64,000 nt of DNA. Source: Nitrososphaerota archaeon. Its GTDB lineage: Archaea > Thermoproteota > Nitrososphaeria > Conexivisphaerales > UBA164. The stretch is taken from assembly GCA_023381255.1 (NCBI GenBank), contig JAMCTX010000022.1, forward strand, positions 19,302 through 83,301, in the 5' to 3' direction. Positions 57,331 through 64,000 of this stretch are shown here, piece by piece. The position numbers and the translations under genes were made by a program. The stretch's first letter is position 1, and every line of letters begins with the position of its first letter. The notes below the pieces were generated by a model that saw only the letters and a list, made by a program, of their open reading frames with translations, was not told the origin of the DNA and ran no database searches.

Positions 57331-57427
57331 CGCCGGGGAAGGGATTCGAACCCTTGAGGGCCGAGGCCCACTGGCTTTCCTGTTCGGGATCTCGAGGCCA
57401 GCCCTTTAACCACTCAGGCACCCCGGC
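57331..57427 (-). tRNA. tRNA-Ser (anticodon CGA) with a ~14-nt intron at the canonical 37/38 position
   Basis: Reverse-complement fold: acceptor GCCGGGG/CCCCGGC; anticodon stem CTGGC/GCCAG enclosing 21 nt (CT-CGA-G + ATCCCGAACAGGAA + A); variable arm GGGCC-TC-GGCCC; T arm AAGGG-TTCGAAT-CCCTT. A T5 run follows immediately downstream. Confidence 0.8.
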
Positions 57428-60157: not shown

Positions 60158-60994
60158 ATGATAGAGCTGCAGGACCTTAGGAAAGTGTACGAAAACGGGC
60201 AGGTTGCATTAAATGGCGTGTCGGCTTCATTTAAAGGGAGGGTAACGTCCATAATAGGCAGGAATGGGGCCGGAAAGACCACCATGATGCGCATACTGTC
60301 AACGCAGCTCATTCCAACTTCAGGGTCTGCAACGATCAACGGCATGGACATATTTCATGAACAGGGCAGGATCAGGCGAAGCCTGGTCAGCATACCCCAG
60401 GAGGGGAGACCGATAGGTTTGCTTACCCCGCTTGAGCACCTGAAAATCTACCTCGCTGCAAGGGGGATGTCATTTAAGGATGCCTCAGAAGCTGCTTCAT
60501 ACGCGTTAAAAAAGCTGGAACTCTGGGAATTCAGGAACAGGCCTACCGACACCCTCTCAGGTGGAATGAAAAGAAAGCTGTTTGTGGCAATGGCAATAGC
60601 AGCAAATGCGGAAACAGTCTTCCTGGACGAGCCAACAACAGGCCTGGACCCCGTTTCAAGGCTGGAGGTCTGGTCAGCAATAAAGGAGCTCAGCTCGGAG
60701 GTTCTTTTAACGACACACTACATGGAAGAGGCCCTGGCGCTTTCAGACGAAGTGGTGTTCATGGACAATGGCATGATTATAAAGAAGGGCAAGATAGCCG
60801 AGCTTCTCAGCGATTTTGAGGGCAAAATCAGGGTTGAATCAACCCAGCCCGTGCACGGCTGGACCAGGATAGGCAACACATACATTTCCTATGCGGATAC
60901 AGACAGTGCAAGCGAATATGTCAGGAAGGGATATTCGGTTAAGCAGGTAACGCTTGAAGACCTGTTTGTGCGATATGGTGTTCAGCTTGAATAG
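60158..60994 (+). CDS. ABC transporter ATP-binding protein (ABC-2/DrrA-like), with no adjacent permease gene
   Basis: 278 aa with Walker A GRNGAGKTT, signature LSGGMKRKL, Walker B VFLDEPTTGLD and an H-loop TTHYMEE. Confidence 0.85.
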   Translation: MIELQDLRKVYENGQVALNGVSASFKGRVTSIIGRNGAGKTTMMRILSTQLIPTSGSATINGMDIFHEQGRIRRSLVSIPQEGRPIGLLTPLEHLKIYLAARGMSFKDASEAASYALKKLELWEFRNRPTDTLSGGMKRKLFVAMAIAANAETVFLDEPTTGLDPVSRLEVWSAIKELSSEVLLTTHYMEEALALSDEVVFMDNGMIIKKGKIAELLSDFEGKIRVESTQPVHGWTRIGNTYISYADTDSASEYVRKGYSVKQVTLEDLFVRYGVQLE

Positions 60995-61002
60995 TTATAG
61001 CT

Positions 61003-61287
61003 ATGGGCATAATGTTCAATGGAAATCGCATTAATTATAGTATGGTCGACATCCATAACTATGTTATGCGGTATAAATATGCAAAGCATGAGCTTGAACG
61101 TGCGGCGTTTAGCAATGATGACAAGAAATTAATTTTGCAATATTTGTCGAAACTGGAAAGCCGTGGCGTTGGCCCCGGCAGGACTGCCAAAATTAGGACA
61201 AGCCTTAACGGCTTAATGAATTTAATTCCAGACCTAAAAAAGGAAACAATTTTCTGGCTTAACGCCAGAGTAAGGCAAAGCAATTAA
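61003..61287 (+). pseudogene. integrase N-terminal (SAM-like) domain fragment; no catalytic domain follows
   Basis: MVDIHNYVMRY...DKKLILQYLSKLESRGVGPGRTAKIRTSLNGLMNLIP parallels the N-terminus of 15155-16156 (MIDIHDRKRK...). The ORF ends in AT-rich sequence full of stop codons. Confidence 0.45.
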
Positions 61288-61395
61288 GCGAATAGTAATT
61301 AATTAATTGGTGTTGGTAGCACATTACGGCAATTAGCCTTAATGGCTTTTATTATAATGCGTGGCGCTCTGTTTTAAGGCAGAGCCTTAACGGCT
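61201..61395. repeat. three copies of the 13-bp quasi-palindrome AGCCTTAAYGGCT, interleaved with GCAATTA(A/G)G repeats
   Basis: Copies lie at 61201-61213, 61335-61347 and 61383-61395. GCAATTAAG/GCAATTAGG-type strings start at about 61280, 61329 and 61400. There is also a TTAAGGC-AGA-GCCTTAA hairpin around 61374-61390. Confidence 0.7.
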
Positions 61396-61798
61396 CCAAG
61401 CAATTAGGCATTAATTCAAAAGCGTTGTTGGTAATTAAGTTAGGCGGTAATTAATTAAATAAAGTAAATAAATTAAATGAAATGCACGCCGCCTGCTTAA
61501 GTGTGTTATAAATTAGGTAAACAATGGTGACTAAAAAAAGAACGTTAGTTGCTGGCTTGATGGCAGCTTAATGCGGGGAAACCCCAAAAAACATAAAATA
61601 AAATATAAATATATTTGGGCGTATGCGCCCGCGATGAAGTGGTTGAACTCACGACTAATAAGTTCATCTATTATAACACCGTTATAGCTTATAAAGAGAC
61701 AACATTATGCATTCAGAAAAAGTCATCGTAATTTTATTTTGTATTTTTATAATTGTTTATCCATTTACAATGATTTATTATCAAAAACTTGGTTTAGT

Positions 61799-62398
61799 TC
61801 AGTAATGAGTAATCCCTACATCCTTCAAGTCGTTCTTTGTTATGGCACCTATGCTTAGCATGTACCTTATCAGACCTTCTGGCGTTTCTGGGTAGCCAAG
61901 GAAAGCACGTGATTTAGGCACGGAAAACCACAGTGCGTTCCGCTCCACAGCCTGAAATGCATCAAGGACAAGCATTCTCCTTTCAAGGTCGGTAAGCTCA
62001 TAGCCCCTTGCCTGCTCAATCTTCCCTTCAAGGTCTGTGGGAACGCCAAGGCTCACCGGCGTTGGCAATACATTTTGTTGCTGTTGTTTAGTGTCCTTTG
62101 CGTTAACCTTCAGCTTGTTTACCAGCTCTTCCGTCAGGTCAAAGTTGTTCATCTGGGCAAACCTTAGTACAAAATATAGAATATTGCCAAGTCCTTCTCC
62201 TATTTCCTTCCTTTCCTCCTTTATTATGGATTTCATTTCATCATCAGACTTAAACATAAAAAGGCCAAGGAGTTTCGCCTCCGCAGATACCCCTATTGCG
62301 AGATCCTTTGCGTTATGAACCTTCTCCAAGCCACCCTCGTCAGAGACATTCTTTGCAAGCACCTTCAGGTATTCAACCATGGTGTCTTTATCATTCAT
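61799..62398 (-). CDS. MazG-like all-alpha NTP pyrophosphohydrolase domain fused to an unknown ~90-aa C-terminal domain
   Basis: 199 aa. The N-terminal half (...AEAKLLGLFMFKSDDEM...EERKEIGEGLGNILYFVLRFAQMNNFDLTEELVNKLKVNAK) follows the MazG/dimeric dUTPase-like helix pattern. The C-terminal half has no recognised motif. Confidence 0.55.
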   Translation of the reverse strand: MNDKDTMVEYLKVLAKNVSDEGGLEKVHNAKDLAIGVSAEAKLLGLFMFKSDDEMKSIIKEERKEIGEGLGNILYFVLRFAQMNNFDLTEELVNKLKVNAKDTKQQQQNVLPTPVSLGVPTDLEGKIEQARGYELTDLERRMLVLDAFQAVERNALWFSVPKSRAFLGYPETPEGLIRYMLSIGAITKNDLKDVGITHY

Positions 62399-62438
62399 AT
62401 TGCAATTGATGAAATACTAGCTTATAATGTTAACTTTT

Positions 62439-62684
62439 CTAAGAAAATGTAGTATGTCGCCGTAAACGGGGAAACATGGCACCAGCCTCAATAACCATAG
62501 CACCAACGTCATCAAAAACTATACCATTCCCTGATTTTGGGCAGTACACCAAGATTGGCTTTTTAACAAGCAATGGCAACGTGTTCTGGGTTGCCCCATC
62601 GCCGTTCAACCCCGTAACCCAATGAATCAGCCCACTTATCGTATTATAACAAATTAAATTACTGAATTTATTGAGGTTAAACAT
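62439..62684 (-). CDS. small hypothetical protein between the OLD-like and MazG-like genes
   Basis: 81 aa, co-oriented, with 31-nt and 40-nt gaps to its neighbours. No motif recognised. Confidence 0.4.
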   Translation of the reverse strand: MFNLNKFSNLICYNTISGLIHWVTGLNGDGATQNTLPLLVKKPILVYCPKSGNGIVFDDVGAMVIEAGAMFPRLRRHTTFS

Positions 62685-62715
62685 ATTATAAAAGACTGCG
62701 AATTGAAGTCAATTG

Positions 62716-64000
62716 TTACAAAGCATTTTTTATATCATTAGCGTTTAATTTTTCCACTAATTCCCCAACTTCTTTAGGCGGGTCAATATTTTCAGCAAGA
62801 CATTTCACATCCTCAAGGTAAATATGATTACCGCCGTGTTCGTAATGACATATTTTAGCCGCCTCATTAAATTTTGGTTGACTTTCAAGTAATCCTGCAA
62901 TATCATCATGATTATATGTTATAGAATTAATGTTTGCTAATGTATCTGAGTTCTTGCGGTCATTGAATGTTATATATTCTATTCCCCATTTATTAAGAAT
63001 TTCAGCCAAAGAAGGCAAATTGCCTGTACCATTACCTTCTATTAAGAGCCTGTCTGTCATGTCAAAATTCATTCTATTTAACCAAATATTTAAAGCGGCA
63101 ACCTCATGAGGCCCCTCTCCAACTATTACCTGCTTAGCGAACAGCGAATTTATTAAATTATTGCACAACGTGGGGTTATTTTTAAAGTTCTCAAAATCTG
63201 AATAATTAACTGTGAATATTTGTGTGTTGTCGTTCTTAATAACAAAACGGATTATTTTTTTATCATGCTTATAATCAATCATATATGGAGAGTGAGTTAT
63301 AATTATGAATTGGTTATTTTCAGAGTGTTCTTTAATTATTCCCAAAATTTGGGTCTGCATAGTTGGGTGCAAATTTGCCGCCGGTTCATCAAGAAATATT
63401 GTTTTTTCGGTATTCCCGATAATGACTGTCAATAGCATAATTAGTTCAAGGTCACCCGCCGCCAGAAAATCACTTGAATAAATTTTCTTTCTAGTTGTAT
63501 CAATGAAAGATAACCTTGCCTGTGGTTGTTTCACGTCATTAATAAATCGAACATTATATTGGCGCTTGGTTAAACTGTTAAATTTTTCAAAAATGTCATT
63601 GTATATTTTATAATTATTACTGTTACTGCTATTATAAAGTCCGTAAAGTACCTTAATCGCGCGTTCTCCATCAAATTGGCTTAACAGGCTAGTATTACTT
63701 GGCGTGCCACCTTGTTGTAAGCTTATAGTATCTGCAAGAGGAGCACGCGGGTTCTTTAATATCATCATGGATGTAATAAAAAGTCGGGATAAAATACTGA
63801 CCAAGCCCATATTTGATGGAGATTGAGGAGACCATAAAAAGTCATAAATTTGTTTTGAGGTTTCTACAACATCCCTAATATCTACTTGTACGACGTTTTT
63901 CGGTATTTTATTTATTATTTGATTTACTGACATTTCTATATTCTCAACAAAACTTATATCAACGACTGTATTTATTCCCAAAACCATTGTTTTTACATGG
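62716..64000 (-). CDS. OLD-family (ABC-type ATPase + TOPRIM) nuclease-like protein; N-terminus lies outside the window
   Basis: The frame is open to the window edge (…HVKTMVLGIN). Contains LAAGDLELIMLL (signature-like), IFLDEPAANLHP (Walker B), IIITHSP (H-loop), then VIVGEGPHEVAAL and LLIEGNGTGN (TOPRIM-like EG..E / G.G). The Walker A motif is presumably upstream of 64000. Confidence 0.7.
   Translation of the reverse strand, partial: HVKTMVLGINTVVDISFVENIEMSVNQIINKIPKNVVQVDIRDVVETSKQIYDFLWSPQSPSNMGLVSILSRLFITSMMILKNPRAPLADTISLQQGGTPSNTSLLSQFDGERAIKVLYGLYNSSNSNNYKIYNDIFEKFNSLTKRQYNVRFINDVKQPQARLSFIDTTRKKIYSSDFLAAGDLELIMLLTVIIGNTEKTIFLDEPAANLHPTMQTQILGIIKEHSENNQFIIITHSPYMIDYKHDKKIIRFVIKNDNTQIFTVNYSDFENFKNNPTLCNNLINSLFAKQVIVGEGPHEVAALNIWLNRMNFDMTDRLLIEGNGTGNLPSLAEILNKWGIEYITFNDRKNSDTLANINSITYNHDDIAGLLESQPKFNEAAKICHYEHGGNHIYLEDVKCLAENIDPPKEVGELVEKLNANDIKNAL

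Follow-up and report, generated by a model that had tools for sequence, protein, structure and literature searches.

The right-hand end of a 64,000-nt stretch of DNA from a Nitrososphaerota archaeon (NCBI GenBank assembly GCA_023381255.1, contig JAMCTX010000022.1, positions 19,302 to 83,301 of the forward strand; the window in what follows) carries three co-oriented open reading frames (ORFs) on the minus strand, separated by gaps of 31 and 40 nt. The first encodes an OLD-family ATPase-TOPRIM protein (gene 1, or OLD), the second is an ORF of 81 aa (g2), and the third encodes a 199-aa protein (g3) with a MazG-like N-terminal half and a C-terminal region, residues 121-199, that we call the X domain. 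All three lie on a 4.9-kb island inserted into a transporter operon, of which the window covers the right-hand 3 kb. A first reading of the DNA, made from its letters alone (the sequence-only reading), had located the three ORFs and their spacing correctly, quoted motifs that are all present in the translations, and proposed the genes as a candidate defence module. The three genes and their parts in the window are listed here.

62716..63987, minus strand: gene 1 ORF inside the window, the C-terminal 423 codons of the 656-aa OLD-family protein
62716..64000, minus strand: gene 1 up to the window end, the 423 codons plus four more in-frame codons
62439..62684, minus strand: g2, an orphan 81-aa ORF whose coding status is uncertain
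61799..62398, minus strand: g3, 199 aa
62099..62398, minus strand: g3 residues 1 to ~100, a degenerate MazG-like (DCTPP1/YpjD-type) four-helix module
61802..62038, minus strand: g3 residues 121-199, the X domain, predicted to have five helices

A search for exact copies of the 199-aa protein returned 19 contigs, six of which were retrieved (L001-L006, from three NCBI metagenome-assembled genomes, a Logan run, an ENA assembly and a JGI metagenome). The island is 100% identical among these six independent assemblies. L001, to which the window is identical, was used for the sequence past position 64000 (window position = 72399 - L001 position), and the full ORF of gene 1, which the sequence-only reading had expected to continue past the window end, was recovered from the identical assemblies. 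It encodes 656 aa (L001 7713..9683), with the 233 N-terminal residues beyond position 64000.

The assignment of gene 1 to the OLD family holds in profile searches, with both Pfam AAA_21 (45.7 bits, gathering score 27) and Pfam OLD-like_TOPRIM (31.9 bits, gathering score 23.2) scoring above their gathering scores. The ATPase motifs are intact, comprising a Walker A motif that lies outside the window (GPNGSGKT), a Walker B motif (FLDEP) and an H-loop (ITHSP). The PADLOC matches are diffuse, with mad3, AriA, AbiLi, GajA and Old models at about 60-75 bits and none of them dominant or fitting the full length. Among PDB structures, the Class 1 OLD protein of Thermus scotoductus (Ts OLD; PDB ID 6p74; phmmer E value, 3.8e-6) matches best. 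A TOPRIM profile made from gene 1 and 11 homologues aligns to residues 366-437 of this structure with an E value of 1e-11 and aligns also to GajA and Class 2 structures.

In Ts OLD, metal A is bound by E377, D431, and D433 and metal B by D381, S478, and E480 (Schiltz et al., PMC7049728), and the DxD column of our TOPRIM profile falls on D431/D433. Gene 1 keeps the residues E524, E528, and D576 as well as the glycine motif IEGNGTGN, and at the position of D433 it has a lysine, K578 (codon 62953-62955), in the segment F-N-D-R-K (D576-R577-K578). The same column holds aspartate in 10 of the 12 sequences, glutamine in the homologue P0125 (DGQ), and lysine in gene 1. The distal metal-B ligands, equivalent to S478 and E480, fall in a region without confident alignment, where IYLEDV resembles by eye the xLE motif of the homologues. 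The metal-A site is thus noncanonical (DxK rather than DxD), so the chemistry of the protein may be weakened or altered. A triple metal-A mutant of Ts OLD is described to be 12- to 15-fold less active, and P2 Old mutants in which ATP hydrolysis or DNA cleavage is disturbed no longer kill recBC-deficient hosts (PMC7049728). Because a lysine stands at the D433 position and the ATPase motifs are intact, a nuclease activity of gene 1 is, as far as its residues tell, neither to be assumed nor to be excluded.

The sequence-only reading had also observed that the known partners of such proteins (UvrD-like GajB, DUF4435 AriB, and a retron reverse transcriptase) are missing here, and they are indeed absent: Pfam, PADLOC, and the list of ORFs show no UvrD-like helicase, reverse transcriptase, or DUF4435 gene in the 4.9-kb island, and Rfam shows no retron noncoding RNA. 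By gene context, gene 1 is a Class 1 OLD as defined in PMC10568477, with the caveat that two ORFs without assigned function follow the gene. Like P2 Old and Ts OLD, the protein combines an ABC ATPase at the N-terminus, interrupted by a long insertion, with a TOPRIM domain at the C-terminus, and it is encoded by a single gene, without a helicase, reverse transcriptase, or DUF4435 partner, on a mobile element, as old is on P2. Unlike these proteins, it is very divergent (the PADLOC Old model scores 62 bits, and the phmmer match to Ts OLD is the distant one given above), replaces the second Asp of DxD with K578, belongs to a Nitrososphaeria host, and has two co-oriented ORFs downstream. Three related systems fit less well. 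Gabija, composed of the Class 2 OLD protein GajA and the UvrD-like GajB, shares the ATPase-TOPRIM protein, and GajA models are among the best PADLOC matches at 58-70 bits; however, the downstream ORFs here have only 81 and 199 aa and show no UvrD/PcrA-like helicase signal in Pfam or PADLOC. PARIS, composed of AriA and the DUF4435 TOPRIM protein AriB, has an ABC ATPase that gene 1 resembles (AriA models, 73 bits), whereas in our protein ATPase and TOPRIM are fused within 656 aa and no DUF4435 match is seen. Retron type I-B, which contains a Class 3 OLD, differs in that the island has no reverse transcriptase ORF and no match to an msr/msd noncoding RNA (Rfam, E value ≤ 1).

Homologues of OLD and g2 were searched for among 5.8 billion proteins and, in an exhaustive HMMER search, those of the X domain among 1.84 billion representative proteins. 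For OLD, one moderately close homologue was found, P0122, with 31% identity over 89% of the length; the others are far more distant. The P0122 gene is solitary; the archaeal element that carries it also encodes a PrimPol/D5 primase-helicase and two Zn-ribbon integrases, and nothing co-oriented lies downstream of P0122. A tblastn search with OLD gave no match in the phage or plasmid databases, and a pattern scan returned nothing in IMG/VR and one partial match (L083) in JGI metagenomes. No MazG or X-domain partner was found beside P0122 or the more distant P0124 and P0127. The latter two, both bacterial, each have a large same-strand STAND NTPase gene directly upstream (L009 111-4875, NB-ARC, 870 aa; L079 554-7088, helix-turn-helix and AAA_16, 1394 aa), and STAND-OLD may be a recurrent gene pair. 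We also observed a tandem 21-nt duplication in the 5' part of the OLD gene, outside the window (L001 7809-7850), which encodes EKQDKPD/EKQDKPN and sits within an acidic, Lys-rich insertion of ~25 aa just before Walker A that is not present in P0122.

The surroundings of the three genes identify the island as an insertion. The features of its borders, some of which lie outside the window, are the following.

61288..61798, no strand: AT-rich noncoding spacer between g3 and the integrase remnant, including two of the three AGCCNTTAAGGCT palindromes
61003..61287, plus strand: N-terminal tyrosine integrase remnant of ~90 aa, with homology from Met14 (61042) and the catalytic domain missing
60981..60991, minus strand: direct repeat on the right side of the island, TTCAAGCTGAA, within the final codons of the ABC ATPase gene
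L001 6455-6465, outside the window: direct repeat on the left side of the island, TTCAATCTGAA
60158..60994: ABC-transporter ATPase, 278 aa
L001 5736-6458: ABC-2 permease, 240 aa

The ABC ATPase and permease genes flank the island in L001 at a distance of 4.9 kb from each other. In three related Nitrososphaeria species (L012, L013, and L014), where the ATPase is 82-89% identical, the same two genes overlap by ~20 nt and nothing lies between them; because of this empty site, the island is an insertion, and the earlier view of the locus as a horizontally acquired island is upheld. The empty site reads AAGATTCAATTTGAACACC, the left junction reads ...AAGATTCAATCTGAA and then continues into the island, and the right junction passes from the island into TTCAAGCTGAACACC. 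The direct repeat that flanks the insertion is 11 bp long and nearly palindromic, TTCAA(T/G)CTGAA. Both host ORFs stay open after the insertion. The end of the ABC ATPase was changed from VQIES to VQLE, with a stop codon supplied by the island, and the permease lost its native start and its translational coupling.

The integrase fragment and the repeat cluster that the sequence-only reading named as borders are both real. The 94-aa ORF at 61003..61287 on the plus strand aligns in BLASTP (E value, 2e-7) with residues 1-55 of a Zn-ribbon tyrosine integrase of 396 aa encoded on L007, and its Smith-Waterman score of 82 was reached by none of 2000 shuffled sequences (29.5 ± 4.5). The remnant does not match two other Zn-ribbon tyrosine integrases, and further integrase pieces were not found in the island. 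With an empty site, a direct repeat, and an integrase at one end, no longer intact, the island is an integrated mobile element of the tyrosine-integrase type. It resembles archaeal integrative elements with Zn-ribbon tyrosine integrases (L007, L002) in the homologous integrase N-terminus, the short flanking direct repeat, and the OLD cargo, and differs from them in that the integrase is cut to ~90 aa, replication genes are missing, and the target is an operon junction and not a tRNA gene. The AGCCNTTAAGGCT palindrome, which can be written AGCC(N)TTAAGGCT, occurs in three copies, at 61201-61213 (inside the integrase remnant), 61335-61347, and 61383-61395, where 0.5 matches are expected in the whole window; a recombinase or a regulator of the former element may have bound there. 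The 511-nt spacer matches no Rfam family (E value ≤ 1), and its RNA folding is weak (z = -2.2). Two other types of element were considered and rejected. The terminal inverted repeats of a transposon or casposon could be drawn by eye with 16 of 26 positions matching, and a repeat search did not recover them; for an SSV-type split integrase, the reading direction of the remnant is from the junction into the island, and a C-terminal piece was not found.

The description of the island as AT-rich applies to gene 1 and the spacers, with a GC content of 0.29-0.38 compared with 0.45-0.52 in the backbone, and fails for the 199-aa gene. At a GC content of 0.42-0.48 and a GC content at third codon positions (GC3) of 0.50, g3 is host-like, and its codon score of +0.34 equals that of the ABC ATPase (+0.33) within a hundredth, compared with -0.12 for the OLD gene. 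With GC3 values of 0.30 and 0.50, the OLD gene and g3 differ in their histories. The g3 ATG is preceded, at a distance of 29 nt, by a TATA-like TTATAA element, and for this reason g3 probably has its own promoter. Another cargo gene, a 180-aa ORF, lies at the left end of the island outside the window (L001 6523-7065) and encodes a hydrophobic helix at the N-terminus and a body rich in Thr and Ser; its matches are all weak, with the pilin UpsA at an E value of 0.017 (for a 210-aa form, L001 6433-7065) and DUF2393 at 0.036.

The N-terminal half of g3 had been taken to be MazG-like, and homology bears this out. Residues 1-100 are homologous to free-standing MazG-like proteins of 110-125 aa with PF03819/PF12643 (E values of 1e-29 to 1e-10, 42-60% identity), with a Pfam MazG-like score of 20.2 bits that is under the gathering score of 27. 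No match to g3 was found in PADLOC, NCBIfam, or PHROGs or, with tblastn, in the phage database. The full-length structure model is of low confidence (predicted local distance difference test score, 61), so that we used only matches of the N-terminal half, as weak support; these Foldseek matches are to AF1178, DCTPP1, and RS21-C6 (PDB IDs 4qgp, 7mu5, and 2oig), proteins of the same DCTPP1-type NTP pyrophosphohydrolase group.

The core of the MazG fold is kept in g3 (ILYFVLRFAQMNN, HNAKDLAIG), and the catalytic residues of these enzymes are largely lost. The alignment confirms that acidic metal ligands are substituted, as suspected earlier: STEANELL has become SAEA-KLL, with the second Glu of ExxE lost and a one-residue deletion, and EELADV has become EGLGNI, where ExxD reads GLGN (Glu to Gly, Asp to Asn). 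In addition, RDWDQF is replaced with GGLEKV, the KYP...GSNKKY tail is gone, and, unlike the free-standing enzymes, the bundle is fused to an unrelated C-terminal domain. In a leave-one-out count, g3 is changed at 11 of 35 family-invariant positions, compared with 0-2 in nine of the 11 canonical members, three in P0002, and seven in the truncated P0009. The ExxD motif is needed for Mg2+ binding in the MazG-like family (PMC4491611). Because the changed invariant residues include three of the four metal-binding acids, canonical NTP hydrolysis by g3 is very unlikely, and the nucleotide depletion or signal degradation that the sequence-only reading had in mind is disfavoured. The closest MazG-like genes (P0002, P0005, P0009, and P0010) follow a sugar-biosynthesis cluster, stand beside McrBC, or are on short contigs, and no OLD gene was found near any of them. 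The canonical gene P0010, 51% identical to g3, adjoins the McrBC restriction system in convergent orientation (L078 22-3962).

The X domain is predicted with high confidence to be a small five-helix domain, for which no structural neighbour was found in the two libraries searched. Only four true homologues came up in the HMMER search, namely, P0148, a Zn ribbon followed by an X domain (54% identical); P0149; P0150, a rearranged form; and P0152, a 345-aa protein with the X domain at its C-terminus. None of these carries a functional annotation, and pattern scans of IMG/VR and JGI metagenomes returned nothing. The 3.2-kb contig of P0148 is packed with small Zn-ribbon genes in a layout typical of archaeal mobile elements, and that of P0152, at 1.7 kb, is too short to classify; neither of these two recovered contexts includes an OLD gene. 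P0150 consists of the first half of the X domain and the C-terminal segment of a 210-aa protein encoded two genes upstream of P0148 (L074 126-1301), a fusion that points to recombination within the X-domain family of element genes. By homology, g3 is a chimera of two unrelated pieces.

The 81-aa ORF g2 matches itself alone in the protein search and had already been noted to lack a recognisable motif; it matched no profile library (Pfam, PADLOC, NCBIfam, PHROGs). Gene callers at times skip it or choose an antisense ORF, and its codon score is marginally best in its own frame. Judging from these signals, g2 may not be a gene.

As far as this could be tested, the three families are not found together elsewhere, which speaks against the proposed functional three-gene module. 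The MazG-like and C-terminal halves of g3 each occur in unrelated contexts, never with an OLD gene, and a tblastx comparison of the island with all compared loci gave just the expected single-gene matches. The trio is unsupported as a module because the closest OLD gene is solitary, distant OLD genes stand beside STAND NTPases, g2 is an orphan, the halves of g3 are found elsewhere without OLD, and the codon usage of g3 is host-like. The literature that we searched describes no OLD+MazG system; the combination would be new if real and, in its present form, is without comparative support.

We explain the locus, with moderate confidence, as an integrative element, by now immobilised, whose cargo is a Class-1-like OLD nuclease with two lineage-specific ORFs behind it. 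The element would have entered at the overlapping stop/start junction of the ABC ATPase and permease genes, most likely by tyrosine-integrase recombination, leaving the 11-bp direct repeat, and would later have lost most of its integrase. Its main cargo would be the OLD-family protein, Class-1-like and encoded by a single gene. On the model of P2 Old and Ts OLD, a dimer of the ABC ATPase may control a TOPRIM nuclease that nicks or degrades the DNA of competing viruses or plasmids, a chemistry that the DxK metal-A site may weaken or alter. The ORFs g2 and g3 would be lineage-specific additions and not conserved partners. The apparently dead MazG-like bundle of g3 probably persists just as a fold or as a scaffold for oligomerisation and is joined to the X domain, giving a putative scaffold or accessory protein that would be transcribed separately.

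Several observations weigh against this explanation. The tight spacing and the common orientation of the three ORFs look like an operon, and the fact that none of the three is broken despite the AT-rich DNA speaks for recent selection. The six assemblies show zero polymorphism from which selection could be measured. For comparison there is a single OLD homologue of sufficient closeness, so that the absence of conserved partners is based on thin sampling. Finally, a catalytically dead MazG fold could still bind nucleotides.

The alternative that survives best, which we nevertheless consider unlikely, is that the whole island is a nonfunctional relic, with a dead OLD (DxK), a dead MazG, and a g2 that is not a gene, in which the ORFs have simply not yet been interrupted. 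In favour of a relic are the integrase, cut to ~90 aa, the metal-A Asp replaced by Lys in the OLD TOPRIM domain, the 11 altered invariant residues of g3, the orphan status of g2, and the effects of the published Ts OLD and P2 Old mutations described above (PMC7049728). However, an ORF of 656 codons at 33% GC is unlikely to stay open by chance, no ATPase motif is damaged, only one of the five assignable TOPRIM ligands is replaced, and the island is fixed and identical in the six assemblies. Change at the position of the second Asp may be tolerated, since P0125 does not have this residue either.

Returning to the trio as one new defence operon, we regard this as improbable. The fusion protein g3 would either deplete or degrade nucleotides or, being dead, sense a nucleotide or viral cue and switch OLD on. 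Consistent with such an operon are the spacing of 31 and 40 nt on a common strand, the lack of any known OLD partner, the novelty of an OLD+MazG pairing in the literature searched, and a g3 that has kept its fold core and lost its catalytic residues, the pattern to be expected if a pseudoenzyme is retained for binding. It is opposed by the lack of co-occurrence in all the loci compared, by an orphan g2 with a weak coding signal, and by a g3 that differs from OLD in composition and is preceded by a TATA-like box; the version based on hydrolysis is contradicted by the lost metal ligands. A more specific form, in which the locus is a singleton three-component immune module whose MazG-derived bundle was repurposed as a sensor of nucleotides or viral products that gates the DxK OLD nuclease via the X domain, is slightly less probable again. 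The least likely proposal, that g2 and g3 serve the element in counter-defence or regulation, have no functional tie to OLD and stand next to it through cargo clustering, would suit the small-gene, Zn-ribbon-rich contig of P0148, typical of archaeal viruses or plasmids, and the TATA-like element and different codon usage of g3, but no homologue carries a functional annotation and the idea largely overlaps the explanation by an immobilised element with OLD cargo, from which present data do not separate it.

On present evidence, the locus does not define a new defence system and belongs to a known kind, the OLD family in a Class-1-like context. Little is known about immunity and mobile elements in Nitrososphaeria, and the locus preserves a clean record of an element that entered an operon junction carrying an OLD nuclease gene. 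The OLD family, for which the breadth of defence provided by a single-gene Class 1 protein alone is unsettled, gains from the archaea a very divergent member that bears a DxK variant. A MazG-like enzyme without its catalytic residues makes g3 an example of enzyme decay or repurposing, and the X domain is an undescribed small domain.

Elsewhere in the window, a tRNA gene of 97 nt at 57331-57427 on the minus strand (Rfam, 50.7 bits) was missed by ARAGORN and is therefore probably intron containing. In another strain, L002, the start of an element encoding a Zn-ribbon integrase of 381 aa lies ~150 nt from the position corresponding to this tRNA gene, which looks like a second integration hotspot.

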